Shown here piece by piece: positions 20,669 to 41,282 of a stretch of DNA of 64,000 bases. Location of the stretch: NCBI GenBank assembly GCA_963813995.1, contig CAWFAZ010000079.1:23236-87235 (forward strand), given 5' to 3'. The first letter of the stretch is position 1. Each line of letters opens with the position of its first letter. Source of the stretch: an uncultured Verrucomicrobiae bacterium. Its GTDB lineage: Bacteria; Verrucomicrobiota; Verrucomicrobiia; Limisphaerales; Palsa-1400. The notes beneath the pieces were generated by a model that saw nothing but the letters and a program-made list of their open reading frames with translations, searched no databases and was not told the DNA's origin. Made by a program: the position numbers and the translations under genes.

Positions 20669-21009
20669 TATGCGTATAATGAAACGCAAAATGCGTAAAT
20701 GTCAAGTGTGTTCCTATGTATCAATCTCGCGCTTCTTGCCATTTTTAGCGGCTTTGCGTTGAAATTGGGAAACGGGTCAGATCCGTCCCTCCCCGTCCCA
20801 CCCGTCCGACTGATCGACGTAAATCCCTCACTGACAACTACTTAATTTAAAAATGCCGAAAATTTCACGGTTTTTTCCGGCGCTTCAAAATGAAAGGCAA
20901 AACCCGCGAAGAATTTTGTCCCACACCCTGAGAGAGGCGAATGGCAATTGGAGTGCTTGACGCCTTCAACCAAGCTTCTAACATCCTGCTGCGTTTGAAC
21001 ACGAAGTTG

Positions 21010-25866: not shown

Positions 25867-26108
25867 TGCCCACGCACGACATCATAGACAATCGCAAGGA
25901 AAAGCTGGTTGACCACATCAATCGCATCCTGTCCTCAACGGAGTCGGCGCGGTTTGCGGTCGGCTATTTTTTTCTGTCCGGGCTGGAGAGCATCGCACGG
26001 CGGCTGGCGGGGGTGGCGGGTTGGGAGGCGGAAATCAACGAGAGGGTGGCCCGGCTCTACGGGCTGACGGCGGAGGAGATCAAAATCGTGGAGGGGGCCA
26101 CGAAATGA
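25866..26108 (+). pseudogene. Chimeric remnant: N-terminus of a PLD-domain helicase-type defence protein fused to a methyltransferase-type C-terminal tail
   Basis: MPTHDIIDNRKEKLVDHINRILSSTESARFAVGYFFLSGLESIARRLAGV is typical of the N-terminus of PLD-helicase restriction-like proteins. It is followed directly by WEAEINERVARLYGLTAEEIKIVEGA, typical of the C-terminus of type IIG/BREX-like methyltransferases. Only 80 aa in total. Confidence 0.5.
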
Positions 26109-27133
26109 AGCCGGAACCCAAATCCGAGATCATTCTCTACCAAACGGAGGACAACCAGACGCGCATCGAAGTGCGCCTGGAGAACGAGACGGTCTGGCTG
26201 ACGCAGAAGCTCATGGCGGAGCTTTTCCAGAAGGATGTCCGCACCATCAACGAACACATCCAGAATATTTTCGAGGAGCGCGAGTTGTCGCCGGATTCAG
26301 TTATCCGGGAATACCGGATAACTGCCGCGGACGGCAAGTCCTATGAAACGCGGCACTATAATCTCGACGTGGTCATTGCCGTCGGCTACCGGGTCAAATC
26401 CCTGCGCGGCACACAGTTCCGTATTTGGGCCACGCAACGGTTGCGGGAATACATTGTCAAGGGTTTCACGCTGGATGACGAGCGGTTGAAGCAGGGCGGG
26501 ACCAAAAGCGAGTATTACGATGAACTGCTCCAGCGCATCCGGGAAATCCGGCTGTCGGAACGGAACTTCCACCGCAAAATATGCGACATCTACCAGACCA
26601 GCATTGATTACGATCCAAGCGCCGAACTGACGCAGTTGTTCTTTCAGACCGTGCAAAACAAAATGCACTGGGCCGCGCATGGACAGACTGCGGCGGAAGT
26701 GATTCACAAACGGGCCAACGCCATGAAGCCGCACATGGGGCTGACCTCGTGGAAAGGGGCAAAGGTGCGAAAGCCGGATGTGGCCATCGCAAAAAATTAT
26801 TTGCAAGAGGAGGAGTTGAAGAAATTGAGCCTGATCGTGACGCAATATCTGGATTTTGCCGAGTTGCAGGCGATGGAGCGCCGTCCGATGACGATGCGCG
26901 ACTGGATTGCGAAACTGGACGCCTTTCTGCGCGCCGGCGACCGTGAAATCCTGGAACACGCGGGGAGCATTTCCGCCGAGGAGGCGAAGCGGAAGGCGGA
27001 ACAGGAGTTCGAGACATTTGACCGGCAACGCCGCCTTCTGGATGACGCCAGGGCCGACGCGCAATTTGCGCAAGAAGTCGAAAGCCTGGCGAAGAAAGCA
27101 AAGCTGCTCAAACCGCCAAAGCGGAAGAAATGA
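26105..27133 (+). CDS. RhuM-family virulence/DNA-binding protein
   Basis: ATG at 26105 (ATGA overlap). EIILYQTEDNQTRIEVRLENETVWLTQKLMAELFQKDVRTINEHIQNIF...YNLDVVIAVGYRVKSLRGTQFRIWATQRLREYIVKGF matches the RhuM family. Confidence 0.85.
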   Translation: MKPEPKSEIILYQTEDNQTRIEVRLENETVWLTQKLMAELFQKDVRTINEHIQNIFEERELSPDSVIREYRITAADGKSYETRHYNLDVVIAVGYRVKSLRGTQFRIWATQRLREYIVKGFTLDDERLKQGGTKSEYYDELLQRIREIRLSERNFHRKICDIYQTSIDYDPSAELTQLFFQTVQNKMHWAAHGQTAAEVIHKRANAMKPHMGLTSWKGAKVRKPDVAIAKNYLQEEELKKLSLIVTQYLDFAELQAMERRPMTMRDWIAKLDAFLRAGDREILEHAGSISAEEAKRKAEQEFETFDRQRRLLDDARADAQFAQEVESLAKKAKLLKPPKRKK

Positions 27134-29075: not shown

Positions 29076-29152
29076 GCGAGCGTAGCTCAGCCTGGTAGAG
29101 CATCACGTTGCCAACGTGAGTGTCGAGGGTTCGAATCCCTTCGCTCGCTCCA
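29076..29152 (+). tRNA. tRNA-Gly (GCC), canonical, CCA encoded
   Basis: gcgagcgTAGCTCAGCCTGGTAGAGCatcacgtTGCCAAcgtgagtgtcgaGGGTTCGAATCCCttcgctcgcTCCA. It has a standard D-loop GG and a standard TTCGAAT T-loop. Confidence 0.95.
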
Positions 29153-29284
29153 TCTCCATCAACGGCCCCGTCTTTCGACGGGAATTCGTCCAAGACAACC
29201 GCAATTCTTCCGCCATCATCCGAGGCGAAATAATTTTTTGAAATATTTCTTGCATGTAACCGATGGCTTGTGCTATCGTCTTAC

Positions 29285-29517
29285 AAGTTCGATGAAAACT
29301 TGCTTGAACATATCAGCCACGAGTTGGCCGACGATGACGGTCGCAAAAGCGACACGTCATAGCCGGATTACCCGGGGCTATGTGTTTAGCCTTGGACTAT
29401 CCCTGGCGCCAATCGGGCAACGGCCCGAAGGTAATTCGGATAGACCCGGTGTAAGCAGGTAACGAATCGAAAGAGAATTTCTTCACCCTGCTTACCGCGT
29501 GTAAGCAGGGTTTTTTA
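29285..29517 (+). ncRNA. Structured leader or small RNA with mutually exclusive terminator/antiterminator
   Basis: A possible promoter (ttgcat-18 nt-tatcgt) lies near 29252-29281. Several local hairpins are present, for example atgacg-gtcgcaaaagcgac-a-cgtcat. An identical 11-mer gtgtaagcagg occurs at 29449-29459 and 29499-29509, and both copies can pair with cctgcttac at 29487-29495. Family unknown. Confidence 0.4.
29486..29517 (+). terminator. Rho-independent terminator
   Basis: ccctgcttac-cgcgt-gtaagcaggg followed by tttttt. Confidence 0.75.
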
Positions 29518-29520
29518 TTT

Positions 29521-29863
29521 TCCCTGTATAACTGAGACGAGAATGGCGGATAACGAAAGATGAACAGTCTGTGAACAAGAATAGCGCGACATCCAGGTGA
29601 TGTCTTCTGGCGACAAACTGAATTTGGCGAGGACGAGCAGAGAAGCCTCACCGGTGGGGTCTGCCCACAGCCGGAAGACAGAGCCGCCAGGACGATCCAG
29701 ACGAATTTTGCATTTACATTTTAAGGGCTTCGCAGGAGGTGTGCCCCCAAACACCGAAACAGCCGCCGTGAAACCGCGGGTTGGTATCGCAAGATAGCAA
29801 GAGGTGTTTGTTCTTTGTTGAAATGGCATGGGCCGGAAGCGTGGCAACGCTTCCGGCCCTTTT
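29521..29863 (+). ncRNA. Second non-coding stretch ending in a strong hairpin-T tract. Function unknown.
   Basis: There is no credible ORF on either strand. It ends with a 12-bp GC-rich hairpin plus tttt. I could not match it to SRP, 6S, tmRNA or RNase P. Confidence 0.3.
29830..29863 (+). terminator. Rho-independent terminator-like hairpin 7 nt upstream of the first tRNA-like unit
   Basis: gggccggaagcg-tggcaa-cgcttccggccc followed by tttt. Confidence 0.7.
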
Positions 29864-29869
29864 ACTTTC

Positions 29870-29943
29870 GCGGCTGTGATTTAACAGCAGAATGCCTCCC
29901 TGCCAGGGAGGACGCCCGGGCGCAACCCCCGGCAGCCGCACCA
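29870..29943 (+). tRNA. tRNA-like unit 1, anticodon GCC (Gly), non-canonical T-loop CGCAACC
   Basis: Acceptor gcggctg/cagccgc; 3-bp D stem att/aat with loop taacagcag; anticodon arm cctcc-cuGCCag-ggagg (GCC at 29902-29904); T arm ccggg-cgcaacc-cccgg; A73; CCA encoded. Confidence 0.7.
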
Positions 29944-29952
29944 ATTCTTGAC

Positions 29953-30024
29953 AGGCTGCGCGTCAGCATGCGGCAGAGTTTCCAAAACTCAGCCCACTCC
30001 GGGTGGCACGGAGGCAGCCTGCCA
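29953..30024 (+). tRNA. tRNA-like unit 2, anticodon CCA (Trp), T-loop GGUGGCA
   Basis: Acceptor aggctgc/gcagcct (A1-U72) with G73, as in bacterial tRNA-Trp; anticodon loop ttCCAaa (29982-29984) on a 4-bp stem; T arm ctccg-ggtggca-cggag; CCA encoded. Confidence 0.6.
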
Positions 30025-30033
30025 ATTTTTTAC

Positions 30034-30108
30034 GGGGTCGTGGCAGACAAGCAATGCACTTGCCCTGCAAGCAAGCCGATGTGGGAGCGTTACCCACCGA
30101 CTCCACCA
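30034..30108 (+). tRNA. tRNA-like unit 3, anticodon UGC (Ala), T-loop AGCGUUA, C33
   Basis: Acceptor ggggtcg/cgactcc containing G3-U70 (30036/30102) plus A73, the Ala identity set; anticodon arm cttgc-ccUGCaa-gcaag (30066-30068); T arm gtggg-agcgtta-cccac; CCA encoded. Confidence 0.7.
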
Positions 30109-30114
30109 TTTCAC

Positions 30115-30187
30115 TGCGGGGAGAATGAGATTCAGGCGAGCCTCATAAGCTCAGCCTTCGTGGGTGCAACTCCCGCCCCCGCTACCA
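30115..30187 (+). tRNA. tRNA-like unit 4, anticodon CAU (Met/Ile2), weakest fold
   Basis: Anticodon loop ctCATaa (30144-30146); T arm gtggg-tgcaact-cccgc; acceptor tgcgggg/ccccgct with a U1-U72 mismatch; unusual D arm gaat-gag-attc; A73 and CCA. Confidence 0.4.
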
Positions 30188-30203
30188 ATTTAAGGTTCAA
30201 AAT

Positions 30204-30279
30204 GCTGCCGTGGCCGAACACATGAGGCATCCGTCTTCTAAACGGAACGATGCAGGTGGAATTCCTGCCGGCAGTGCCA
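30204..30279 (+). tRNA. tRNA-like unit 5, anticodon UCU (Arg), T-loop UGGAAUU
   Basis: Acceptor gctgccg/cggcagt; D stem gcc/ggc; anticodon arm tccgt-ctTCTaa-acgga (30237-30239); T arm gcagg-tggaatt-cctgc; G73; CCA. Confidence 0.7.
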
Positions 30280-30280
30280 T

Positions 30281-30354
30281 TGCCAGGTGGTGTCAAAGTA
30301 GCACGGCGGCCTGTTAAGCCGCTTGTCTTGGTGCGAGTCCAAGTCTGGCAGCCA
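30281..30354 (+). tRNA. tRNA-like unit 6, anticodon GUU (Asn), T-loop UGCGAGU
   Basis: Acceptor tgccagg/tctggca (U1-A72) with G73, as in E. coli tRNA-Asn; D stem gtg/cac; anticodon arm gcggc-ctGTTaa-gccgc (30313-30315); T arm cttgg-tgcgagt-ccaag; CCA. Confidence 0.7.
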
Positions 30355-30361
30355 ATTTCAC

Positions 30362-30452
30362 GGAAGGCAGGCAGATACAAGCTGGCTGCACCTGTCCCGA
30401 AAACAGGATCGGCTCAAACCCGAGGTCGGAGCGTTACCGACGCCTTCCGCCA
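30362..30452 (+). tRNA. tRNA-like unit 7, class II, anticodon CGA (Ser), T-loop AGCGUUA, C33
   Basis: Acceptor ggaaggc/gccttcc; 4-bp D stem gcag/ctgc; anticodon arm cctgt-ccCGAaa-acagg (30398-30400); long variable arm tcgg-ctcaaac-ccga (30409-30423); T arm gtcgg-agcgtta-ccgac; G73; CCA. Confidence 0.7.
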
Positions 30453-30481
30453 ATTCCAAACCCATAACGAAAGGAAACCCC

Positions 30482-30637
30482 ATGAAATCCATTGTTCGCC
30501 ATCAAAGCCAGTTGCTCTTTCGCAAGAGCTACAAACCAAAGCGTGCCATTCGAATCCGGCCGCTGCCGCGGCTGAATATTGTGTTCCGCCCCGTGAACCG
30601 GTTTGGCGTGAAGCCGCAATTGACAATCGTCTCGTAG
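30482..30637 (+). CDS. Possible small, very basic protein (51 aa) inside the tRNA-like array
   Basis: aaaggaaacccc ATG (Shine-Dalgarno-like). MKSIVRHQSQLLFRKSYKPKRAIRIRPLPRLNIVFRPVNRFGVKPQLTIVS. Its last three sense codons and stop (tag at 30635-30637) overlap the first 10 nt of unit 8 (30628-30637). No family recognised. Confidence 0.3.
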   Translation: MKSIVRHQSQLLFRKSYKPKRAIRIRPLPRLNIVFRPVNRFGVKPQLTIVS

Positions 30638-30698
30638 CTCAAGAGCAGAGCGCCCGGCTGATAACCGGAAGACCGCGGAGCGTTACCGCGCGGGACGA
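30628..30698 (+). tRNA. tRNA-like unit 8, anticodon GAU (Ile), canonical-looking D arm, T-loop AGCGUUA, no CCA
   Basis: Acceptor cgtctcg/cgggacg; ta-gctc-aagagca-gagc; anticodon loop ctGATaa (30660-30662); T arm cgcgg-agcgtta-ccgcg; A73 followed by tcc. Confidence 0.65.
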
Positions 30699-30739
30699 TC
30701 CGTCTTCGCTCTCCGAGCTTCGGCTCGGCGAGCCAAATT
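30699..30739 (+). repeat. Conserved ~40-nt motif, copy 1 (also at 32098-32138 and 33487-33527)
   Basis: tccgtcttcgctctccgagcttcggctcggcgagccaaatt. It can form gctc-t-ccgagc-ttcg-gctcgg-c-gagc. It follows directly after a tRNA-like 3' end. Confidence 0.7.
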
Positions 30740-30814
30740 CCCCGGGTAGCTGAGGCAGATTAGCGCCTCCCTGAAGAGGAGGAGACGTTGGCGCGATACC
30801 AACCCCGGGGGCCA
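30740..30814 (+). tRNA. tRNA-like unit 9, anticodon GAA (Phe), T-loop CGCGAUA
   Basis: Acceptor ccccggg/cccgggg; ta-gctg-aggcagat-tagc; anticodon arm cctcc-ctGAAga-ggagg (30773-30775); T arm gttgg-cgcgata-ccaac; G73; CCA. Confidence 0.7.
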
Positions 30815-30818
30815 TTTT

Positions 30819-31256
30819 AAATGCAGAGTTTGGAGTGGGGAGTGTAGAATGCTTAATCCGGCGGATTCCGACGGGCGGTGTTGATCGAAGAAACGGCGAT
30901 GGCGACCAACTCATTGGCCTCTCGCAGCAACGCTCCAGCCTGATGGAGCGTGGTTTTGTCGGAGTCAATCAACAATTCCATCCAAAAGGCGGACTCGTCG
31001 GCTTCTTCCAGAACCAAACCCATTTTGGCAATGAAGTCGGCTTTTGATCTTGCGCGGCAAACCGCCCGATAATTGGCGCCAACCGACGTGCCGGAACGCA
31101 ACAATTGCCGACCCAACGTTTTGCAAGTTTCCGTGGTCGGAAGGCATTCGACAAAGCGAATCACGTCCAGTGCGAATTGCCGTGTCCGATTCTGAAGGTC
31201 TTGGTGTTTCATAATAATTTCGGCATTCTGCACTTTGCACTTATAACTCTCAACTT
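30819..31256. repeat. Long imperfect inverted repeat (about 34-nt arms) enclosing the four-helix-bundle ORF: an IVS-like stem
   Basis: Left arm aaatgcagagtttggagtggggagtgtagaatgc (30819-30852) pairs with right arm gcattctgcactttgcacttataactctcaactt (31223-31256), about 27 of 34 positions including G-U pairs. Confidence 0.75.
30853..31212 (-). CDS. Four-helix-bundle protein (23S rRNA intervening-sequence protein family)
   Basis: MKHQDLQNRTRQFALDVIRFVECLP...GRQLLRSGTSVGANYRAVCRARSKADFIAKMGLVLEEADESAFWMELL is the hallmark of the family. The ORF could start at 31233. Confidence 0.85.
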   Translation of the reverse strand: MKHQDLQNRTRQFALDVIRFVECLPTTETCKTLGRQLLRSGTSVGANYRAVCRARSKADFIAKMGLVLEEADESAFWMELLIDSDKTTLHQAGALLREANELVAIAVSSINTARRNPPD

Positions 31257-31262
31257 CTTCCC

Positions 31263-31340
31263 GCTCTCAAAGTGTAATCAGATCTGCACGCCGCCCTGCG
31301 AAGGCGGAGGTTCGTGGTGCAAATCCACGTGAGAGCGCCA
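31263..31340 (+). tRNA. tRNA-like unit 10, anticodon GCG (Arg), T-loop UGCAAAU
   Basis: Acceptor gctctca/tgagagc; D stem gtg/cac; anticodon arm ccgcc-ctGCGaa-ggcgg (31298-31300); T arm cgtgg-tgcaaat-ccacg; G73; CCA. Confidence 0.7.
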
Positions 31341-31345
31341 CTTTT

Positions 31346-31442
31346 AAGTGCAGAGTGCTGAGTGCAAAATGCAGAGTGAAGAGTGGAAGGACGCGAACAT
31401 GCCGCTTTTCACTCTGCACTTTGAATTCACAACTTTGCACTT
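31346..31442. repeat. Empty copy of the purine/pyrimidine long hairpin (no ORF inside)
   Basis: aagtgcagagtgctgagtgcaaaatgcagagtgaagag ... cttttcactctgcactttgaattcacaactttgcactt. It uses the same sequence vocabulary as the arms around the four-helix ORF. Confidence 0.7.
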
Positions 31443-31449
31443 TTGCAAT

Positions 31450-31524
31450 GGTGATCATGATGTAACAGCAGCATCACGCCCCGTGACGGCGTTTGTGCCG
31501 GTGCAAATCCGGTTGGTCACCCCA
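31450..31524 (+). tRNA. tRNA-like unit 11, anticodon GUG (His) with G-1 and C73, T-loop UGCAAAU, C33
   Basis: g(-1) at 31450; acceptor gtgatca/tggtcac; D stem atg/cat with loop taacagcag; anticodon arm acgcc-ccGTGac-ggcgt (31483-31485); T arm gccgg-tgcaaat-ccggt; C73; CCA. Confidence 0.7.
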
Positions 31525-31536
31525 ATTCCTCATGGA

Positions 31537-31611
31537 ATCCCGTTGGCCGAGCAGCGCAGGCGGCGGTCTGCAGAACCGCAAAGGCTGGTGCAACTCCAGC
31601 ACGGGATTCCA
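31537..31611 (+). tRNA. tRNA-like unit 12, anticodon GCA (Cys) with U73, T-loop UGCAACU
   Basis: Acceptor atcccgt/acgggat; D stem gcc/ggc; anticodon arm gcggt-ctGCAga-accgc (31570-31572); T arm gctgg-tgcaact-ccagc; discriminator U (the Cys identity element); CCA. Confidence 0.7.
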
Positions 31612-31634
31612 ATTTCGCCGAACCAGCCGGAGGA

Positions 31635-32054
31635 TCACGAGTCGCCCATCACCGTGACCGCAATCGTGCGCCGGCGCGGTTTGATGTCGCACTCAAGATG
31701 AAAGATTTGCTGCCATGTGCCCAGCACGGGTTTGCGATCTTTGACTGGCACCGTGAGCGAAGGGCCCAGCATCGTCGCCTGCAAATGCGAATGGCCGTTG
31801 CCATCATGCCAGGCGTGTTCGTGGCCGTAGTCCCGACTGGGCGGAAACAGCTTGTCCAATATATTGGGCAGGTCTTCCTGAAGACCCGGCTCGAATTCAA
31901 TGGTGCCAATCGCGGCGGTGCTGCCGACGTTGAAAATATGCACAACGCCGGACCGCACGCCTGATGCGTTCACGATCCGGGCCACCTCGTCGGTGAGGTC
32001 GTGCATCTCTTTGTGTCCGGTGGTTTGAACCTGGATTTCTCGTTGATAGGTCAT
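31635..32054 (-). CDS. YjbQ-family (secondary thiamine-phosphate synthase-like) protein, antisense to the array
   Basis: ATG at 32054. MTYQREIQVQTTGHKEMHDLTDEVARIV...GVVHIFNVGSTAAIGTIEFEPGLQEDL...HEHAWHDGNGHSHLQATMLGPSLTVPV matches the YjbQ/UPF0047 pattern. Confidence 0.85.
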   Translation of the reverse strand: MTYQREIQVQTTGHKEMHDLTDEVARIVNASGVRSGVVHIFNVGSTAAIGTIEFEPGLQEDLPNILDKLFPPSRDYGHEHAWHDGNGHSHLQATMLGPSLTVPVKDRKPVLGTWQQIFHLECDIKPRRRTIAVTVMGDS

Positions 32055-32097
32055 GCCGTTGTTTATACCGAAGCTGCCGTCCAAGCGAGGTTTTCCC

Positions 32098-32138
32098 TCC
32101 AGCCTTCGCTCTGCGAGCTGCGGCTCGGCGAGCCATTT
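32098..32138 (+). repeat. Conserved ~40-nt motif, copy 2
   Basis: tccagccttcgctctgcgagctgcggctcggcgagccatttt. Confidence 0.7.
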
Positions 32139-32144
32139 TCCGCG

Positions 32145-32212
32145 ACGCGAATACCGGTGCCGGCCAGGGTTTCACAGACCTGGCTGCGGCGGTTCAACTC
32201 CGCCTTCGTGTC
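32145..32212 (+). tRNA. tRNA-like unit 13, anticodon CAC (Val). The only unit with a canonical T-loop (UUCAACU). No CCA.
   Basis: Acceptor acgcgaa/ttcgtgt, extendable to an 11-bp helix across 32141-32215; short D arm ccg-gtgc-cgg; anticodon loop ttCACag (32173-32175); T arm ggcgg-ttcaact-ccgcc. Confidence 0.5.
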
Positions 32213-32218
32213 GCGTCC

Positions 32219-32295
32219 GGGTTGCAAGCATTGCAGTGATGCAGCCCCGAACGCTTTCGGGGCAGAGCACGGTGCGAATCCGTGGCAACTCACCA
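32219..32295 (+). tRNA. tRNA-like unit 14, anticodon arm aberrant (6-bp stem with 8-nt loop AACGCUUU, or longer stem), T-loop UGCGAAU
   Basis: Acceptor gggttgc/gcaactc; D stem gca/tgc; T arm cacgg-tgcgaat-ccgtg; A73; CCA. The anticodon arm gccccg-aacgcttt-cggggc cannot form a 7-nt loop. Confidence 0.5.
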
Positions 32296-32300
32296 ATTTC

Positions 32301-32400
32301 AAGTGAAGAGTTGAGAGTGACGAATGCAGAATGGAGAGGATGAGAGGTTATCGCGTGCCAGCCGGTTTTTCATTCTGCATTCCGCACTCTGCACTTCTTC
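32301..32400. repeat. Empty copy of the long purine/pyrimidine hairpin
   Basis: aagtgaagagttgagagtgacgaatgcagaatgga ... ttcattctgcattccgcactctgcacttcttc. Confidence 0.7.
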
Positions 32401-32402
32401 CG

Positions 32403-32479
32403 GCTCCCGTAGCTCAAATTATCAGAGTGCGACGCTTCGAACGTCGCGGTTGCAGGTGAGAGTCCTGCCGGGAGTGCCA
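32403..32479 (+). tRNA. tRNA-like unit 15, anticodon UCG (Arg), T-loop UGAGAGU
   Basis: Acceptor gctcccg/cgggagt; ta-gctc-aaattatca-gagt; anticodon arm cgacg-ctTCGaa-cgtcg (32437-32439); T arm gcagg-tgagagt-cctgc; G73; CCA. Confidence 0.7.
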
Positions 32480-32485
32480 ATTCAG

Positions 32486-32562
32486 GCCGCGTTAGCCCAA
32501 CTACCAGAGGCGCTCCGCTCAGGACGGAGAGGTTGGGGGTGGAACTCCCTCACGCGGCACCA
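32486..32562 (+). tRNA. tRNA-like unit 16, anticodon CAG (Leu) but with a short (class I) variable region, T-loop UGGAACU
   Basis: Acceptor gccgcgt/acgcggc; D stem gcc/ggc; anticodon arm ctccg-ctCAGga-cggag (32520-32522); 5-nt variable region; T arm ggggg-tggaact-ccctc; A73; CCA. Confidence 0.65.
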
Positions 32563-32583
32563 TTTGGCGGCCCTGCGCCGGCA

Positions 32584-32655
32584 GCTCCCGTAGCCCAAGG
32601 CAGAGGCGACGGGCTTAAACCCCGTGCAGTGTCAGTGCAAATCTGACCGGGAGCA
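32584..32655 (+). tRNA. tRNA-like unit 17, anticodon UAA (Leu), class I-like, T-loop UGCAAAU, 3' CCG instead of CCA
   Basis: Acceptor gctcccg/cgggagc; ta-gcc-caaggcaga-ggc; anticodon arm acggg-ctTAAac-cccgt (32616-32618); T arm gtcag-tgcaaat-ctgac; A73 followed by ccg. Confidence 0.65.
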
Positions 32656-32663
32656 CCGCTTTC

Positions 32664-32738
32664 GCCCGTGTAGCCCAAGGCAGAGGCCCGAAGCTCAAAC
32701 CTTCGACAGTGCAGGCGCAAGTCCTGCCACGGGCACCA
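32664..32738 (+). tRNA. tRNA-like unit 18, anticodon CAA (Leu), class I-like, T-loop CGCAAGU
   Basis: Acceptor gcccgtg/cacgggc; D arm identical to unit 17; anticodon arm cgaag-ctCAAac-cttcg (32696-32698); T arm gcagg-cgcaagt-cctgc; A73; CCA. Confidence 0.65.
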
Positions 32739-32742
32739 TTTT

Positions 32743-32834
32743 GGAATGTCAACCGGACGAGCGAGCCGGGCCTGTTTGCTAAACAGCGCGCTCCTGGAAA
32801 CGGGAGTGTGGCGCAAGTCCACGGCATTCCGCCA
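32743..32834 (+). tRNA. tRNA-like unit 19, class II, anticodon GCU (Ser), T-loop CGCAAGU
   Basis: Acceptor ggaatgt/gcattcc; 4-bp D stem ccgg/ccgg; anticodon loop ttGCTaa (32778-32780); long variable arm ctcc-tggaaacg-ggag; T arm tgtgg-cgcaagt-ccacg; G73; CCA. Confidence 0.65.
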
Positions 32835-32839
32835 TTTTC

Positions 32840-32931
32840 GCGCGCGTAGCTCAAAGAGAGCCGGCGGCCTTATACCCCGCATCGCACTGGATCAGTGCCG
32901 GGTTCCGGAGCGTTACCGGACGCGCGCACCA
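32840..32931 (+). tRNA. tRNA-like unit 20, class II with 9-nt anticodon loop CCUUAUACC (identity unclear), T-loop AGCGUUA
   Basis: Acceptor gcgcgcg/cgcgcgc; ta-gctc-aaaga-gagc; anticodon stem gcgg/ccgc with loop 32868-32876; 6-bp variable arm gcactg-gat-cagtgc (32884-32898); T arm tccgg-agcgtta-ccgga; A73; CCA. Confidence 0.5.
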
Positions 32932-32936
32932 CTTCC

Positions 32937-33014
32937 GTCCCTGTGGTGTAGTCCAGCCAGCACGCCTGCCTCTCATGCAGGAGATCACCGGAGCAAAGCC
33001 GGTCAGGGACGCCA
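32937..33014 (+). tRNA. tRNA-like unit 21, anticodon CUC (Glu), T-loop AGCAAAG
   Basis: Acceptor gtccctg/cagggac; D stem gtg/cac with loop tagtccagccag; anticodon arm cctgc-ctCTCat-gcagg (32972-32974); T arm accgg-agcaaag-ccggt; G73; CCA. Confidence 0.7.
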
Positions 33015-33020
33015 CTTTTC

Positions 33021-33094
33021 GGCCTGCAAGCATTAAAGTGATGCAACGGTCTTTTAAGCCGTTGAACGGGGAGCGTTACCCCGGCGGGCCACCA
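33021..33094 (+). tRNA. tRNA-like unit 22, anticodon UUU (Lys), T-loop AGCGUUA
   Basis: Acceptor ggcctgc/gcgggcc; D stem gca/tgc; anticodon arm acggt-ctTTTaa-gccgt (33053-33055); T arm cgggg-agcgtta-ccccg; A73; CCA. Confidence 0.7.
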
Positions 33095-33097
33095 GTT

Positions 33098-33343
33098 TTA
33101 AGCAGAGTTTTCGCCAAGGCTCATTGCTGTATTCGACACGGGCATTTCGCCGTAATGGAATCCGGTTTCGTCTTCATAACCAATCGGCACGAGATGATTG
33201 ATGGCCGTGTGCCATATAACCGCGATGCGAGTCCAACTTCCCGGCCGCGCGGCTGGAACGATCAGACCGTCGCCGTTAGACGAGGACACCCATTCGGCTG
33301 GAACGCCTCCATCTGTATGACTGATAGTTGTCATGCTCCACAT
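33098..33343 (-). CDS. Hypothetical small protein antisense to the array
   Basis: 81-aa ORF (MWSMTTISHTDGGVPAEWVSSSNGDGLIVPAARPGSW...). No recognisable family and weak translation signals. Confidence 0.3.
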   Translation of the reverse strand: MWSMTTISHTDGGVPAEWVSSSNGDGLIVPAARPGSWTRIAVIWHTAINHLVPIGYEDETGFHYGEMPVSNTAMSLGENSA

Positions 33344-33414
33344 ATATCGGCTGAAACCAACGCGAGCTTACCATTTTTGTCAATTGATGAGCAATTTTTG
33401 ACCATCCTTTCGGG

Positions 33415-33489
33415 TGCCTCGTGGCATAATCAGGAGCGCGCCGGTCTCTGACACCGGAGAACCTGGAGCAAAACCAGGCGGGGCAGCCA
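33415..33489 (+). tRNA. tRNA-like unit 23, anticodon CUG (Gln) with U1-A72 and G73, T-loop AGCAAAA
   Basis: Acceptor tgcctcg/cggggca; anticodon arm ccggt-ctCTGac-accgg (33448-33450); T arm cctgg-agcaaaa-ccagg; G73; CCA. The D stem is poorly defined. Confidence 0.6.
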
Positions 33490-33527
33490 GCCTTCGCCTC
33501 GCGGCTGCGGCTCGGCAAGCCAATTTC
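33487..33527 (+). repeat. Conserved ~40-nt motif, copy 3
   Basis: ccagccttcgcctcgcggctgcggctcggcaagccaatttcc. It overlaps the CCA of unit 23. Confidence 0.7.
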
Positions 33528-33566: not shown

Positions 33567-33652
33567 GAAAGTGCGGAATGCAGAGTGCAGAGTGGAAAGT
33601 GCGTCATGGAACGCGGCGCTCGTCTTCATTCTGCACTCCGCATTCCAAACTC
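33567..33652. repeat. Empty copy of the long purine/pyrimidine hairpin, just upstream of the HNH gene
   Basis: gaaagtgcggaatgcagagtgcagagtggaaag ... cttcattctgcactccgcattccaaactc. Confidence 0.7.
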
Positions 33653-33664
33653 TTGACTGAATTT

Positions 33665-34249
33665 ATGAACGACATACTGAACAAGTCGATGGTGCTGGTG
33701 CTGAACCGTAACTGGCAGGCCGTCAACGTCCGCACGCCACAGGAGGCCTTCTGCATGATGGCGACGAACGTGGCGACCGGCCTGGAAATCGAAGGCGAAA
33801 ACCACATCCGTCCCGTGATCTGGAACGAGTGGATCACTCTGCCCATTCGTCCGCAGGACAATGCGGTGCGAACCGTCCGCGGCCCGATTCGTGTGCCCAC
33901 GGTGATCGTGGCGGTGAATTACGCCAGGGTGCCGAAGAAGCGCCCGAAGCTGTGCGCCCGCGCCATTCGCGAGCGCGATAGCAACCGCTGTCAATACACC
34001 GGCCGCGTGCTGCGCCAGGGCGAGGGCAGCATTGACCACGTTGTGCCTCGTTCGCGCGGCGGCAAGAACGCTTGGGAGAATCTGGTTTGGGCCGGCAAAG
34101 ACGTAAACGCGCGCAAGGGCAACCGACTGCCACACGAGGCCGGCTTGAAGCTGCTCTCGGTGCCGCGCGCGCCGAAGGAACTGCCGGCGACGGCGATCAT
34201 TCGCAACGCTCACGGAATTCCTGAATGGAAACTGTTTGTGCAGCACTGA
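33665..34249 (+). CDS. HNH endonuclease
   Basis: ATG at 33665. MNDILNKSMVLVLNRNWQAVNV... and RCQYTG...IDHVVPRSRGGKNAWENLVWAGKDVNARKGN form the HNH motif. A GC hairpin (34252-34282) follows the stop. Confidence 0.85.
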   Translation: MNDILNKSMVLVLNRNWQAVNVRTPQEAFCMMATNVATGLEIEGENHIRPVIWNEWITLPIRPQDNAVRTVRGPIRVPTVIVAVNYARVPKKRPKLCARAIRERDSNRCQYTGRVLRQGEGSIDHVVPRSRGGKNAWENLVWAGKDVNARKGNRLPHEAGLKLLSVPRAPKELPATAIIRNAHGIPEWKLFVQH

Positions 34250-34723
34250 AGACTGTTGGGCCGCCTGCCTGTGGCGGCCCAACAATTGAAATCAAGAAGC
34301 GTGTCTTTGGCTCTTGGCTCCGCTCCAATACCGTTAAATGTGGTTCATTTTCATTACGGCCCGTCTGTTCATCTTCCTCAGCTTCCAACTCCGCCTCGCG
34401 GCGGCGCTGTCGAGGCCGTGTTCCGTCGTGAACAACCTGATTCGACGAGTGGGACTTTCACCCGCGTTGCAATCAACTTCACTGGCGCAACCTCACCATT
34501 TCTTGGCAATTCTTTGCCTTAAATTGCGCGATATCATGGAGTTGAGGCTCAAACCGACCACTTTTTCATTTTTAGTGACTTTTATTTAATTTTCGGTTGA
34601 CTTGTTTTGGCATATCGGCATAAACAGGGCATGTATCAGGAGAAGCCCGATTTTCTCAATGGTGCTCTTCCTGCCAACTGTTCGCGAATTAGTGGTCCGT
34701 TAAAAATAAAGAAAAAGATTACT

Positions 34724-37700
34724 ATGAGAGCAACACTTTTCTGCCGGGTTCTGACGTTTGCAATGATACCTGCCATGACCCAAGTGACGGCATTGGCCAA
34801 CCCTTTGGGCGGCGCGGTTGTTTCGGGGAGTGCCGCCATTGGCTATTCCAGCACCGCTGTCAACATCAACCAGAACAGCGCTCGGGCTATAATTGACTGG
34901 GCTTCTTTTAATATTGCTGCTGGCGAAAGCACATCCTTTCATTTTTTAGGTCGGAGCGGGGCCAACAGCGCTGTTCTCAACGAGGTCAGCGCCAGTGCCG
35001 GGCAGTCATTTATAAACGGCCTGCTCAACTCTTATGTCGGCGCCGGAAACAGCAAAATTGGCGGCAGTGTTTATGTGCTCAACCCCAATGGCATTCTCTT
35101 TGGCTCGCAAGGCTCGGTCAATGTTGGAAGTTTCGTTGGAACAACGCTTTCCATTGACAATCACTCTTTTATGGCGGGGGGAAACCTCACCTTGGGCAGC
35201 GCGAATTTGAGCGGCGATTCAACGGCGGCCATTCAGAATCAGGGACAGATTAATGCGCTTGGCGGGGACATATTCCTGGTCGCTCAACAAGTTGAAAATG
35301 ATGGCAGTCTCAGCGCCAACCATGTGGGGTTGGCCGCCGGTTCATACGTGCAACTCAATCAGGCGGGGCTTCCTGGCGGGCAACACATTTCGATCCTCGC
35401 GGGCAATCCATCAACTCCCGCCGCCACCGGCGTCGTGAATTCCGGCACTATTCAGGCGGTCACAGCCGAGTTGAAGGCGGCGGGCGGCAATATCTATGCC
35501 CTGGCCATTAACAACTCCGGCGTGGTCCGGGCCAACACCCTGACCGGCCAGGGCGGCCACATTTACTTGACTGCCAATGGCGGAAATATTCAAAACTCTG
35601 GAACTCTGTCGGCTTCCGGCGTCTCGGGCAAGGGCGGGTCCGTCATCGTCACTGGCGGCAACATTACTTTGGCTGGCGGCAGCGTGGTGAATGTCAGTGG
35701 CCAGACTGGCGGGGGCACGGCCCTGATCGGCGGTGGCCCTCACGGCACCGACCCGTCCGTGCAAGACGCCCGGCAAACCACCGTGGCGGCGGGCGCCAAC
35801 ATTATTGCCGATGCCGTGACAGATGGCAACGGCGGCAAAGTGGTCGTCTGGTCGGACGACACCAGTTTTGCCGGTGCCATCAGTGCTCGCGGCGGCGCGA
35901 ATGGCGGCAACGGCGGATCAGTCGAAGTTTCCGGCCACTACCTGTCCTTTACTGGTTCGGTCAATACGCTGGCGCCGCATGGCAAAGCTGGAACTCTTCT
36001 CCTCGATCCAGATGACCTGATCATTAACAACGCTGACAATAACAGTGGTCCTGTCCCCCCCCCTACGACGTTTGAGCCCAGTGGCCTCGCTTCGACGATT
36101 TCTTGGAGCACCATCACTGGCCCTGGCGGTCTGGGTTCGGGCAACGTTACGGTCACCACTACGGCATTCACGGGGCCGGATAACGGTGACCCGGGGAACG
36201 GGACGATCACGGTCGGCGCCGCATCCTCCGGTTTGGCCACCAGCGCCGGCCATAATCTGACGATTAATGCTGCTAACAATCTGATCGTCAACTTCGCTAT
36301 TAACGATACTGGAACAGGGAATTTGACCCTGCAAAGTGGCGGGGCTGTAAGTCTTAATGCGACCGTGACGGGCAGCACCGTGACGCTCAATGGCGCTGTC
36401 ACAGGCTCCAGCCTGTTGACTGCCACGACTCTGAATTTGCAGGGCAGCGGCGCTGTTGGGGCGACTGGCGCGGGCAACGCGCTCAACACCACTGTCAGCG
36501 ACATCGTGCTGGGCAAGAGTGGCGGCAATAGTTTTATCAATCAAACCGCAGGTACGCCGGTGGACATTGGCGGGACGACCGGCGGCGGCAACCTGACTTT
36601 GACATCCGGGGCGGCAACGGTGGATGGGGTGGCCAACCTGACCGCCACCGGCGGGACGGTGACGTTTGTCAACAGCGGAGCGTTGACCGGGAGCGGGCTT
36701 GTGACGGCGGCCACGTTGAATCTGGACGGCAGCGCCAATGTGGGCGCGACCGGGGCTGGCAACGCGCTGAACACGACGGTGGGCACCATCAGCCTGGGTG
36801 AGACAGCTTCGGCCAACAACTGGATCAACCAGAATGCGGCCACACCCGTGGACATTGGCGGGACGACCGATGGCGGCAACCTGACTTTGACATCCGGGGC
36901 GGCCACGGTGGATGGGGTGGCCAACCTGACCGCGACCGGCGGGACGGTGACGTTTGTCAACAGCGGGGCGTTGACCGGGAGCGGGCTTGTGACGGCGGCT
37001 ACGTTGAATCTGGACGGCAGCGCCAATGTGGGCGCAACCGGGGCCGGCAACGCGCTGAACACGCAAGTGAGTACCATCAGCCTGGGTGAGACAGCTTCGG
37101 CCAACAACTGGATCAGCCAGAATGCGGCCACGGCAGTGGACATTGGCGGGACGACCGATGGCGGCAACCTGACTTTGACATCCGGGGCGGCCACGGTGGA
37201 TGGGGCGGCGAATCTGACCGCGACCGGCGGGACAGTGACGTTTGTCAACAGCGGGGCGTTGACCGGGAGCGGGCTTGTGACGGCGGCTACGTTGAATCTG
37301 GACGGCAGCGCCAATGTGGGCGCAACCGGGGCCGGCAACGCGCTGAACACGCAAGTGAGTACCATCAGCCTGGGTGAGACAGCTTCGGCCAACAACTGGA
37401 TCAGCCAGAATGCGGCCACGGCAGTGGACATTGGCGGGACGACCGATGGCGGCAACCTGACTTTGACATCCGGGGCGGCCACGGTGGATGGGGCGGCGAA
37501 TCTGACCGCGACCGGCGGGACAGTGACGTTTGTCAACAGCGGGGCGTTGACCGGGAGCGGGCTTGTGACGGCGGCTACGTTGAATCTGGACGGCAGCGCC
37601 AACGTGGGCGCGACCGGGGCCGGCAACGCGCTGAACACGACGGTGGGCACCATCAGCCTGGGTGAGACAGCTTCGGCCAACAACTGGATCAGCCAGAATG

Positions 37701-40700
37701 CGGCCACGGCAGTGGACATTGGCGGGACGACCGATGGCGGCAACCTGACTTTGACATCCGGGGCGGCCACGGTGGATGGGGCGGCGAATCTGACCGCGAC
37801 CGGCGGGACAGTGACGTTTGTCAACAGCGGGGCGTTGACCGGGAGCGGGCTTGTGACGGCGGCTACGTTGAATCTGGACGGCAGCGCCAATGTGGGCGCA
37901 ACCGGGGCCGGCAACGCGCTGAACACGCAAGTGAGTACCATCAGCCTGGGTGAGACAGCTTCGGCCAACAACTGGATCAGCCAGAATGCGGCCACGGCAG
38001 TGGACATTGGCGGGACGACCGATGGCGGCAACCTGACTTTGACATCCGGGGCGGCCACGGTGGATGGGGCGGCGAATCTGACCGCGACCGGCGGGACAGT
38101 GACGTTTGTCAACAGCGGGGCGTTGACCGGGAGCGGGCTTGTGACGGCGGCTACGTTGAATCTGGACGGCAGCGCCAACGTGGGCGCGACCGGGGCCGGC
38201 AACGCGCTGAACACGACGGTGGGCACCATCAGCCTGGGTGAGACAGCTTCGGCCAACAACTGGATCAACCAGAATGCGGCCACACCCGTGGACATTGGCG
38301 GGACGACCGATGGCGGCAACCTGACTTTGACATCCGGGGCGGCCACGGTGGATGGGGCGGCGAATCTGACCGCGACCGGCGGGACAGTGACGTTTGTCAA
38401 CAGCGGAGCGTTGACCGGGAGCGGGCTTGTGACGGCGGCCACGTTGAATCTGGACGGCAGCGCCAACGTGGGCGCGACCGGGGCCGGCAACGCGCTGAAC
38501 ACGACGGTGGGCACCATCAGCCTGGGTGAGACAGCTTCGGCCAACAACTGGATCAGCCAGAATGCGGCCACGGCAGTGGACATTGGCGGGACGACCGATG
38601 GCGGCAACCTGACTTTGACATCCGGGGCGGCCACGGTGGATGGGGCGGCGAATCTGACCGCGACCGGCGGGACAGTGACGTTTGTCAACAGCGGGGCGTT
38701 GACCGGGAGCGGGCTTGTGACGGCGGCTACGTTGAATCTGGACGGCAGCGCCAATGTGGGCGCAACCGGGGCCGGCAACGCGCTGAACACGCAAGTGAGT
38801 ACCATCAGCCTGGGTGAGACAGCTTCGGCCAACAACTGGATCAGCCAGAATGCGGCCACGGCAGTGGACATTGGCGGGACGACCGATGGCGGCAACCTGA
38901 CTTTGACATCCGGGGCGGCCACGGTGGATGGGGCGGCCAACCTGACCGCGACCGGCGGGACGGTGACGTTTGTCAACAGCGGGGCGTTGACCGGGAGCGG
39001 GCTTGTGACGGCGGCTACGTTGAATCTGGACGGCAGCGCCAACGTGGGCGCGGCCGGGGCCGGCAACGCGCTCAACACGACGGTGGGCACCATCAGCCTG
39101 GGTGAGACAGCTTCGGCCAACAACTGGATCAGCCAGAATGCGGCCACGGCAGTGGACATTGGGGGAACGACCGATGGCGGCAACCTGATTTTGACATCCG
39201 GGGCGGCAACGGTGGATGGGGCGGCCAACCTGACCGCCACCGGCGGGACGGTGACGTTTGTCAACAGCGGGGCGCTGACCGGGAGCGGGCTTGTGACGGC
39301 GGCCACGTTGAATCTGGACGGCAGCGCCAATGTGGGCGCGACCGGGGCCGGCAACGCGCTCAACACGCAAGTGAGTACCATCAGCCTGGGTGAGACAGCC
39401 CTGGCCAACAACTGGATCAACCAGACTGCGGCCACAGCAGTGGACATTGGCGGGACGACCGATGGCGGCAACCTGACTTTGACATCCGGGGCGGCCACGG
39501 TGGATGGGGCGGCCAACCTGACCGCCACCGGCGGGACGGTGACGTTTGTCAACAGCGGGGCGCTGACCGGGAGCGGGCTTGTGACGGCGGCCACGTTGAA
39601 TCTGGACGGCGGCGGCAGTGTGGGAGCGACTGGCGCGGGCAACGCGCTCAACACCACTGTCAGCGACATCGTGCTGGGCAAGAGTGGCGGCAATAGTTTC
39701 ATCAATCAAACCACAGGCACGGCGGTGGACATTGGCGGGACGACCGGCGGCGGCAGCGTGACTTTGACCGCGGGAGCGACGACGGTGAACACCGCGGCAT
39801 TGAACGCTGGCGCGGGCAACGTGACGTTGAACACGACAACATTGGCCCTGGGCCAGAATGTCAGTGGCGCAACAGTGACACTGAATAACAGCAGCACCGC
39901 GACAATCAATGCCGCTCTGAGCGGAATCACCACGCAACTGGCCATCACAGGCACAGGCACGTTGCAGGTGAACAATACGATTTCAGCAGGGTCGCTCAAT
40001 GATGGCGAGGCCACGACACTCAATGGAACCGGCGGCAGCCAGATTATCACCACGACCGGCGGGGACCAGAACTACACGGGCACTGTGAAATTGGGAGTCC
40101 CCACGACCTTGAACAGCGGGACGTTGGAACTTGGGGCGGTGACCGGGGGCGGCAACAGCCTGACTTTAAACAACACCGGGGTGGCGACGTTGAGCGGGAC
40201 GGAGAGCGGCATAGGCGTGTTGAGCGCCAGCGGGAGCGGAACCCTTGTGGTCAACAACAACCCATCGGCGGTGAGCGTGAGTGACACAGAAGGCACGACG
40301 CTCAACGGCACCGGCGTGACCACGACGGGGGGGATCAGAGTTACACGGGCACTGTGAAGCTGGGAGCCAATACGGCCTTGAACAGCGGGACAGTGGAACT
40401 TGGGGCGGTGACCGGAAGCGGCAAGAATCTGACTTTAAACAACACCGGGGTGGCGACGTTGAACGGGACGGAGAGCGGCATAGGCGTGTTGAGCGCCAGC
40501 GGGAGCGGAACCCTTGTGGTCAACAACAACCCATCGGCGGCGAGCGTGAGTGACACAGAAGGCACGACGCTCAACGGCACCGGCGTGACCACGACGGGGG
40601 ATCAGAGTTACACGGGCACTGTGACGCTGGGAGCCAATACGGCCTTGAACAGCGGGACGTTGGAACTTGGGGCGGTGACGGTGACCGGAGGCGCCAAGAA

Positions 40701-41250: not shown

Positions 41251-41282
41251 AGTAAACGACCCATGCTCACTAAAATAGGAAT

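Follow-up and report, generated by a model that had tools for sequence, protein, structure and literature searches.

The 64,000-nucleotide stretch of contig CAWFAZ010000079.1 analyzed here (the window), from an uncultured Verrucomicrobiae bacterium, contains about 23 tRNA units on the same strand within 3.6 kb (29870–33489), found with ARAGORN, with Rfam and, in one case, by hand. Two open reading frames (ORFs) on the opposite strand break up the series. We favor, with a probability of roughly 0.55, the interpretation that a Verrucomicrobiota chromosome has here gained, by horizontal transfer, a long tRNA gene array (L-array) of the kind found on phages or mobile elements, and that the array carries a divergent but structurally constrained tRNA lineage. 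The irregular anticodon arms and tRNA bodies that an original prediction had singled out would then be traits inherited with the lineage, not local damage.

The full list of units depends on a relaxed ARAGORN threshold: the default setting finds 14 tRNA genes in the window, and -ps80 finds 21 on the + strand between 29076 and 33489. Rfam adds two units, one at 31263–31337 and one as a weak tRNA-Sec-like match at 32144–32212. The RF00005 cloverleaf, with its 7-bp acceptor, 5-bp anticodon and 5-bp T stems, is found in 15 array units at 41–54 bits; the others are missed, and a housekeeping-type tRNA-Gly(GCC) just upstream scores 67.7 bits. Units 14 and 20 and the Ser units have no RF00005 match at E <= 1 in Infernal, and Rfam offers no family of their own for units 14 and 20.

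The elbow of nearly every array tRNA is unusual. All 20 array units called by ARAGORN have either a G55-type T-loop or the loop AGCGUUA. Among the 21 calls between 28500 and 34700, only the housekeeping tRNA-Gly(GCC) (29076–29152, + strand), with a GG D-loop and a GGTTCGAATCC T-arm, is canonical, and it provides an internal contrast to the array. Unit 13, seen by Rfam only, is the sole array unit with a canonical T-loop. The array loops fall into two classes, N-G-C/N-R-A-N-N (for example UGCAAAU or UGCGAAU) and AGCGUUA; the standard combination of T54-Psi55-C56 with G18 G19 is absent, and A18 G19 is the reading of most D-loops. In the Infernal alignments UGGUA stands against AAGCA or CAGCA, and the D-loop of array-type tRNAs typically ends in AGCA or AGUA. 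In related Verrucomicrobial and soil loci (L124–L278) the array-type T-loops make up 65–80% of the tRNAs. There 95% of the tRNAs that have a canonical T-loop also have the D-loop GG, versus 10–15% of those of G55 type. Because the D-loop and T-loop changes are coupled, they suggest an alternative elbow rather than erosion, and the comparison points to a coordinated arrangement in which A18 accompanies G55, or AGCGUUA is used. The literature searched makes no mention of this elbow change and contains no occurrence of GAGCGTTAC, GAGCGUUAC or AGCGUUA.

Three of the 20 units lack the near-invariant U33, as the original prediction had stated. The ARAGORN cloverleaves place C32 C33 in unit 3, tRNA-Ala(UGC) (30034–30108; loop CCUGCAA), in unit 7, class II tRNA-Ser(CGA) (30362–30452; CCCGAAA), and in unit 11, tRNA-His(GUG) (31451–31524; CCGUGAC); for Ala and His the Infernal alignment to the Rfam tRNA model agrees. 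Units 3 and 7 have the T-loop AGCGUUA, unit 7 has G73, and unit 11 has G at −1 opposite C73. The same state recurs among orthologues. Positions 32 and 33 are CC in 8, UU in 5 and CU in 1 of the Ala orthologues (C33 in 8/14), CC in 6 and CU in 4 for Ser (6/10), and CC in 4, CU in 1 and UU in 1 for His (4/6). In a wider set of about 1130 tRNAs with 7-nucleotide (nt) loops from metagenome arrays, among the matches listed, C33 is concentrated in particular isoacceptors: Leu-GAG (20/25), His (19/36), Thr-GGU (15/29), Val-UAC (6/8), Ile-GAU (7/27) and Ala (4/14). It is found in 0 of about 400 tRNAs for Lys, Arg-UCG/UCU/CCU, Asn, Gln-CUG, Leu-UAA, Thr-CGU and others. Array-type tRNAs have C33 in 10–13% of cases, versus 3.6% for tRNAs with canonical T-loops in the same loci (Fisher p = 3e-12), and G34 follows C33 in 60% of cases.

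The rest of these molecules is under evident constraint. Stem pairing is complete across 12 Ala orthologues (240 of 240 cells), and four pairs show double changes; the stem score was reached by none of 500 shuffles, and slid controls pair at 33–44%. The identity element G3:U70, present in unit 3, is invariant in the Ala orthologues except in one row shifted by an insertion, and G-1 with C73 occurs in both the C33 and the U33 forms of tRNA-His. Because C33 is concentrated in certain isoacceptors while the remainder of the molecule is constrained, we regard it, from the alignments, as a recurrent, isoacceptor-specific state of constrained tRNAs. It is probably a tolerated or favored alternative to U33 in those isoacceptors, with identity elements kept. 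The Thr(GGU) units with C33 were considered as G-1 "His-like GGU" tRNAs of the kind described in PMC5389517; their loops are UCGGUAA, and they are therefore not of that kind.

There is a natural parallel for C33 in the eukaryotic cytoplasmic initiator tRNA-Met. That tRNA is an initiator and acts in the P site, whereas the C33 units described here are elongator-type tRNAs for Ala, Ser, His, Leu, Thr, Ile and Val from bacteria and phages. Alternation of C32 C33 with U32 U33 among orthologues, as if C were equivalent to U at the RNA level, could also mean that C33 is corrected by C-to-U editing after transcription and that the mature tRNAs are standard. No deaminase gene is found among the Pfam-scanned ORFs of the array or window, no bacterial deaminase is known to act at position 33, and editing seems highly improbable.

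Unit 20 (32840–32931; A73, T-loop AGCGUUA, called by ARAGORN) was originally described as a class II body with a 9-nt anticodon loop that might present UAU, UUA or AUA. The class II body with its extra arm stands; the 9-nt loop and the ambiguity of register do not. The anticodon arm is GCGG/CCGC around C-CUUAUAC-C, and the loop reaches 9 nt only if the C.C apposition is counted as open. The unit belongs to a family of 60 distinct sequences of 86–96 nt (loci L008–L278), in which the UAU anticodon is invariant, U33 and A37 are present in nearly all members, and 43 of 60 end in A73-CCA. A 31:39 mismatch occurs in 21 of 54 members (C.C in 9, A.C in 7, A.A in 3, C.A in 2); in the remaining members the 7-nt loop is closed by an ordinary stem of 5 bp. 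Since the loop is constant in the family and the mismatch recurs, the apparent 9-nt loop is, on this comparison, a normal 7-nt loop, CUUAUAC, with U33 and A37 inside a tolerated C31.C39 mismatch. We consider unit 20 a probable reader of AUA, a tRNA(UAU) whose extra arm is conserved.

The extra arm, GCACTG-GAT-CAGTGC, can also be drawn as GCAC-UGGAUCA-GUGC with a 7-nt loop. Its stem exists in at least 14 different paired versions in the family, and its loop follows Y-A-G-A-U-N-A with GAU constant (UGGAUCA in the window, 32883–32897). An orthologue 95.7% identical to unit 20 is present in a Limisphaerales metagenome-assembled genome (MAG). The D- and T-arms of unit 20 resemble those of the array's own tRNA-Ile(GAU). 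As a lead and not a result, the extra-arm loop also resembles the anticodon loop of tRNA-Ile(GAU), CU-GAU-AA.

The nearest published relative of unit 20 is the allo-tRNA(UAU) of soil bacteria (PMC5389517). The two have in common the UAU anticodon, a long extra arm, an origin in soil, stem-weakening mismatches and doubtful use in translation. In the allo-tRNAs the acceptor and T stems are arranged 8/4 or 9/3 and the D-arm is Sec-like; these genes occur singly near toxin-antitoxin genes. Unit 20 probably has the 7/5 arrangement. It has a 4-bp D-stem, a 5-nt D-loop and A73, lies inside an array, and has the conserved YAGAUNA loop. The 7/5 assignment is that of ARAGORN and fits the T-arm; pairing of U8 with A65 would give 8/4, and the minimum-free-energy fold has 8 acceptor pairs but no T-arm. 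The D-arm of unit 20 is not Sec-like, and the family D-loop is often the standard AACGGUAG. The literature searched holds no description of an extra-arm tRNA-Ile(UAU) in phages.

Units 16–18 (32486–32738), tRNA-Leu(CAG), Leu(UAA) and Leu(CAA), have 5-nt variable regions according to both ARAGORN and Infernal, as had been claimed, and so lack the class II arm of bacterial tRNA-Leu. All three have the A73 discriminator, and their D-arms keep the Leu-like GG(Y)AGA pattern. The short arm is not an oddity of this locus but what arrays of this kind usually have. Counted over all loci, Leu-anticodon tRNAs with the short arm number 331 and those with the long arm 81; A73 is present in 292 of the 331 short-armed molecules (88%). 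The class I Leu body also occurs in Streptomyces phages (80–83% identity) and in a Ruminococcus plasmid array and a Tsukamurella plasmid (80–84%); unlike the units of the array, these phage and plasmid homologues have canonical GTTCGA T-loops. A short-variable-loop tRNA-Leu had already been noted in a horizontally transferred mycobacterial tRNA cluster (PMC6582537). Leucyl-tRNA synthetase (LeuRS) of Escherichia coli needs A73 and the elbow contacts G18:U55 and G19:C56, but not the long arm (PMC9976931). Those contacts are altered in units 16–18, whose T-loops UGGAACU, UGCAAAU and CGCAAGU all have G55; the D-loop GG is present in two of the three.

Unit 14 (32219–32295) has a tRNA-Lys-type body with a GC-rich hairpin in place of a standard anticodon arm. 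The arm, GCCCCG-AACGCTTT-CGGGGC, cannot form a 7-nt loop, in agreement with the original description; it has a 7–8-bp stem and a loop of 4–6 nt. In the minimum-free-energy fold it closes to an 8-bp stem with a CGCU tetraloop, and the cloverleaf is otherwise intact. Most occupants of the same Lys(CUU) slot are ordinary. Among the matches listed, about 115 of 122 metagenome matches have the standard arm CGGU-CUCUUAA-ACCG, whose stem occurs in five or more versions with full compensation, and only two resemble unit 14: L253 (GCCCCGA-AGGCUU-UCGGGGC) and L192 (GUCCCGA-UUCCGAA-UCGGGAC). A 7-bp stem with one compensatory pair is common to the three; the arrays of L253 and L192 are only 76–88% identical to that of the window. 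The loop of L192 is a regular 7-nt loop (CCG), and those of the window and L253 are of 6 nt, closable to 4. The L192 unit, UUCCGAA loop included, was considered as a second independent "anticodon-less" hairpin and rejected, since only the stem is held in common. A scan of all loci for other closed-arm tRNAs returned mostly ordinary UU-NNN-AA loops and no general class. The stem of unit 14 is two pairs too long, and any anticodon would therefore be misplaced. Unit 14 is thus very probably a non-decoding member of a rare long-stem lineage in the Lys(CUU) slot, and possibly a decaying derivative; the suggestion that some units are non-decoding tRNA mimics is a fair one for this unit.

Expanded loops on units 14 and 20 had raised the prospect of frameshift or nonsense suppressors. 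A naive reading from the ARAGORN output does give loops of 8 and 9 nt, and the neighboring unit 13 has UCA in its loop and is weakly tRNA-Sec-like. Neither unit presents an open loop of 8 nt or more on a 5-bp stem, however. The 8 nt of unit 14 pair with one another to give a tetraloop on an 8-bp stem, the arm exceeds the standard by 3 nt and would misplace any anticodon, and the relatives are ordinary tRNA-Lys(CUU). Among the relatives of unit 20, most show a simple stem of 5 bp under a 7-nt loop with U33, A37 and UAU, and the 31:39 mismatch varies (A.C, A.A, C.C) while the loop stays constant. Recoding is accordingly a most improbable function for either unit.

It is possible, if rather doubtful, that some units, chiefly 14 and 13, are tRNA-shaped decoys, sponges, regulators or non-ribosomal aminoacyl donors; such a molecule might, for example, bind a tRNA-directed toxin or enzyme without being consumed. 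The acceptor, D and T framework of unit 14 is intact despite the closed arm, and three arrays that have diverged from one another still have the long stem, in which one pair shows compensation. Unit 13 (32140–32218) is a non-standard tRNA-like RNA, assigned by folding and by a weak tRNA-Sec match of 25 bits, with a 9–11-bp acceptor stem, the loop YUCACA (UCA), the canonical T-loop UUCAACU and no CCA. It is nevertheless highly conserved, in at least 90 arrays and always just upstream of the Lys(CUU) slot. There is a precedent in irregular tRNAs that accept an amino acid but take no part in translation (PMC5389517). Against such roles, most units of the array offer one anticodon per amino acid with matching identity elements, as expected for decoding, and no partner protein has been identified. 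Lysyl-tRNA synthetase reads the anticodon, and charging of unit 14 is therefore unlikely.

The array is one of many. A T-arm motif common to five window units, GGAGCGTTACC-N11-CCA-N-TT, has 4 matches in the window against an expectation of 0. At least 120 IMG/VR stretches contain it, nearly all of the occurrences being within tRNA arrays, on tRNAs with more than 25 different anticodons. A two-motif pattern, two AGCGTTA T-arms at the same spacing, matched 35 genome loci; most of these belong to MAGs or isolates from Verrucomicrobiales, Limisphaerales and Prosthecobacter. Homologous arrays are present in at least 25 Verrucomicrobial genomes, in more than 100 contigs from soil metagenomes and in some viral contigs, and the units of related genome loci are 85–98% identical to those of the window. 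The pattern flanking the anticodon arm of unit 14 is found in at least 120 metagenome contigs, with soil among the sources. Arrays with the same T-loop type occur in 11 of 103 IMG/VR loci, where that loop type is in the majority. The distribution is patchy: related arrays also appear in MAG records titled Gammaproteobacteria, Proteobacteria and Klebsiella, in addition to the IMG/VR contigs. An HNH endonuclease gene (33665–34249, + strand; Pfam HNH_4/HNH_5) adjoins the 3' end of the array, and its homologues stand beside arrays in 7 genome loci (54–80% identity) and 8 viral loci (30–46%). The array is thus supported as one of phage or mobile-element kind, and the comparison with phage-encoded tRNAs in the original prediction is to that extent upheld.

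Elements of this kind are already known. L-arrays, including examples in Verrucomicrobia and with neighboring homing endonucleases, were described in PMC8421152. The present array agrees with them in having at least 20 closely spaced, same-strand, supernumerary tRNA genes, a patchy distribution that implies horizontal transfer, an adjoining homing-type endonuclease gene, some pseudogene members and a verrucomicrobial host. It differs in that nearly every member has a G55 T-loop and lacks G18, CCA is encoded in all units but two, and a conserved non-coding leader of about 600 nt with two terminators precedes the genes. An HNH gene, tRNA-Ile(UAU), tRNA-Arg(UCG) and short-variable-loop tRNA-Leu are also found in the clusters of Mycobacterium mucogenicum and M. 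phocaicum (PMC6582537) and in phage arrays; no extra-arm Ile(UAU), C33 or rewired elbow was described there. What appears to be new is the isoacceptor-specific C33, the extra-arm tRNA(UAU) with its GAU loop, the long-stem variant in the Lys slot, the rewired elbow and the conserved leader.

It might be argued instead that the array is a silent, eroding relic and that the irregular arms are pseudogene damage, as the original prediction had allowed. Several observations weigh against our reading or in favor of decay. A strong terminator lies 10 nt upstream of unit 1, directly before the array, and no convincing promoter was found inside it. The array has undergone some real erosion: units for Asp, Val, Pro, Thr and Tyr are missing from the set, two protein genes are inserted, and a His-like remnant is present (30587–30605). 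The Rfam scores are 41–54 bits, versus 67.7 bits for the housekeeping tRNA-Gly. Unit 14 has no 7-nt loop, its arm type occupies only 3 of about 125 orthologous slots among the matches listed, and its loops vary (ACGCUU, AGGCUU, UUCCGAA), which fits decay as well as function. The L-array of Anabaena counts three pseudogenes among its 26 genes (PMC8421152). Relaxed constraint at position 33 would account equally well for the switching between C33 and U33 in close orthologues. The altered elbow contacts in units 16–18 mean that charging by LeuRS is not assured. Finally, the loci used for comparison were retrieved by means of this family's own motifs and lack phylogenetic independence; the set is biased toward the family, and related sequences inflate the counts.

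These points are opposed by stems that are 100% paired, with compensatory changes across species-level genomes, and by the retention of identity elements (G3:U70; G-1/C73). In addition, C33, the 31:39 mismatch, the short Leu arm and G55/A18 recur in hundreds of related units and do so with isoacceptor specificity, which is therefore unlike random damage. We thus consider simple decay unlikely as an account of the irregularities, with unit 14 a possible exception, and prefer an inherited, constrained tRNA lineage.

Evasion of anticodon nucleases, the rationale first offered for the loop changes, is plausible. No PrrC, RloC or PIN/VapC gene was found among about 50 window ORFs scanned with Pfam and ten compared with PADLOC. 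The only candidate there is a pair about 10 kb from the array: a SAV_6107-like HEPN gene (19657–20097) with an HTH-nucleotidyltransferase (MNT) gene (pair 19657–20689), which corresponds to PADLOC candidate PDC-M05. Other defense-type genes also lie upstream of the array, namely GmrSD-N with an AAA_21/DUF3696 ATPase and a RhuM gene (PDC-S05); the defense-type stretches are 1657–4022, 19657–20689 and 26021–27133. The phage tRNAs proposed in PMC10264068 to escape anticodon nucleases likewise have substitutions in the anticodon loop but outside the anticodon itself, and they too are carried by mobile elements in duplication of isoacceptors of the host. The basis of that proposal is a set of known VapC, PrrC or colicin sites in known hosts; the change here, unlike in that case, falls at the near-universal U33.

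A tentative and rather speculative extension is that such arrays are a parallel tRNA set, re-engineered at the surfaces read by cellular enzymes or tRNA-directed toxins while synthetase identity is kept, and hence a translation back-up invisible to defenses. A18.G55 or AGCGUUA would replace G18.Psi55, C33 would be used in selected isoacceptors, and Leu would lose its long arm. The extra-arm loop YA-GAU-NA of tRNA(UAU) would copy the anticodon loop of tRNA-Ile(GAU), and could be a surrogate identity or modification signal for a lysidine-independent AUA reader. Phages and mobile elements would be its carriers, and a leader that senses the ribosome would turn it on. The working model that goes with our favored reading is more modest. 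In it, the array would be transcribed as a polycistron by read-through of the leader terminators, and the transcript would be cut at the CCA-(A)UUU punctuation. Once charged by host synthetases, the tRNAs would stand in for the housekeeping tRNAs when these are damaged or run short, and the changes at 32/33 and in the elbow would lower recognition by tRNA-directed nucleases or modification enzymes. Induction of an L-array by translational stress has been shown only in Anabaena (PMC8421152).

Few features of bacterial tRNAs are as constant as U33, G18, Psi55 and, in tRNA-Leu, the long arm. Here, sets of 20–40 tRNAs drop such features in a coordinated and conserved way, and they are widespread in soil Verrucomicrobia and viral contigs. 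If they function in translation, they reveal what extent of redesign a tRNA can undergo with charging and decoding kept, and they are natural test cases for mobile-element tRNAs blind to tRNA-directed immunity. If they do not, they constitute an abundant class of tRNA-shaped RNA of unknown use. Cultured carriers exist in Prosthecobacter, such as P. fluviatilis KACC 12649 (locus L153) and P. debontii, and either outcome is therefore testable.

The conserved leader (29240–29868, + strand) has a promoter-like TTGCAT-N17-TATCGT, read by eye, at about 29249–29280, and two terminator-like hairpins, at 29485–29511 and 29830–29859, the second preceded by the invariant block AAGAGGTGTTTGTTCTTTGTTGAAATGG. 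It is 71–85% identical in at least 11 genome loci and is present in 15 genome, 7 metagenome and 1 viral loci. The leader shows no 3-base periodicity and has no Rfam match; it may be an attenuator or a new structured RNA. Alternative GGUGU/ACACC pairings can be drawn in it, and an invariant Shine-Dalgarno-like AAGAGG with a mini-ORF, GUG UUU GUU CUU UGU UGA, stands before the second terminator. A minus-strand ORF at 29515–29847 was considered as a conserved protein on the strength of tblastn matches in many arrays. It has no Pfam match, an implausible sequence and no 3-base periodicity, and we regard it as non-coding.

The genes around the array are chromosomal and typical of Verrucomicrobiota or Planctomycetota. 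By Pfam they include DnaK, MlaEFD, UbiE, a two-partner secretion (TPS) pair, DUF1559/prepilin and PEP-CTERM proteins. Downstream of the array there is no integration repeat that matches the 3' end of the tRNA-Gly gene, and exact-sequence look-ups of the HNH protein and of the UPF0047 protein encoded within the array gave no record. The TPS pair lies directly 3' of the array (34607–43211, + strand) and consists of a 1916-residue TPS-domain exoprotein and a ShlB/FhaC-type transporter. Some exoproteins of two-partner secretion systems carry tRNase toxin domains.

The remaining units are all on the + strand. Unit 1, tRNA-Gly(GCC) (29870–29943; T-loop CGCAACC), is found by ARAGORN at -ps80 and by Rfam (48.6 bits). 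Unit 2 (29950–30024), called by neither ARAGORN nor Rfam, was read by hand with the aid of a fold as a tRNA-like element with the loop UUCCAAA (Trp CCA) and the T-loop GGUGGCA; copies 90–95% identical occur in loci L136, L151, L150 and L156. Units 4–6, Met(CAU), Arg(UCU) and Asn(GUU) (30115–30354; ARAGORN, Infernal), all have U33 and G55-type T-loops. Units 8 and 9 are Ile(GAU) and Phe(GAA) (30627–30814); Ile(GAU) lacks an encoded CCA and ends in TCC. Unit 10, tRNA-Arg(GCG) (31263–31340), with T-loop UGCAAAU, rests on Rfam (54.3 bits) and a manual reading of the loop. Units 12, Cys(GCA) (31537–31611), and 15, Arg(UCG) (32403–32479), are seen by ARAGORN and Infernal. ARAGORN finds unit 19, a class II tRNA-Ser(GCU) with G73 (32743–32834), units 21 and 22, Glu(CUC) and Lys(UUU) (32937–33094), and unit 23, Gln(CUG) (33415–33489). 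The two inserted genes, on the − strand, encode a four-helix-bundle protein of the 23S_rRNA_IVP family (30853–31212; Pfam E = 1.3e-12) and a UPF0047 (YjbQ-like) protein (31635–32054; Pfam E = 1.3e-33).

The gap between units 7 and 8 (30453–30626) holds the fragment at 30587–30605, which resembles a His anticodon arm and again has CC before GUG. A very basic 51-codon ORF with a Shine-Dalgarno-like sequence occupies 30482–30637. A mistranslated query over the gap gave tblastn matches in L138, L136 and L126, which suggests similarity to those loci at the DNA level. Repeats of the GCAGAGTG type make long inverted repeats at 30813–30840, 31224–31256, 31340–31442, 32302–32410 and 33570–33659; they flank the four-helix-bundle gene and precede unit 15 and the HNH gene, and may be cassette boundaries or terminators.

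Nearly all units between 29870 and 33100 end in CCA followed by (A/C/G)TTT, which could guide 3' processing. Three copies of a hairpin of about 36 nt are present on the + strand, at 30704–30738 (between units 8 and 9), 32104–32137 and 33491–33526 (after unit 23). Each ends in GCCA and then (A)TTT, and so resembles a minihelix that carries the 3' end of a tRNA. Two copies lie directly 3' of tRNA units, one of which has no CCA of its own.

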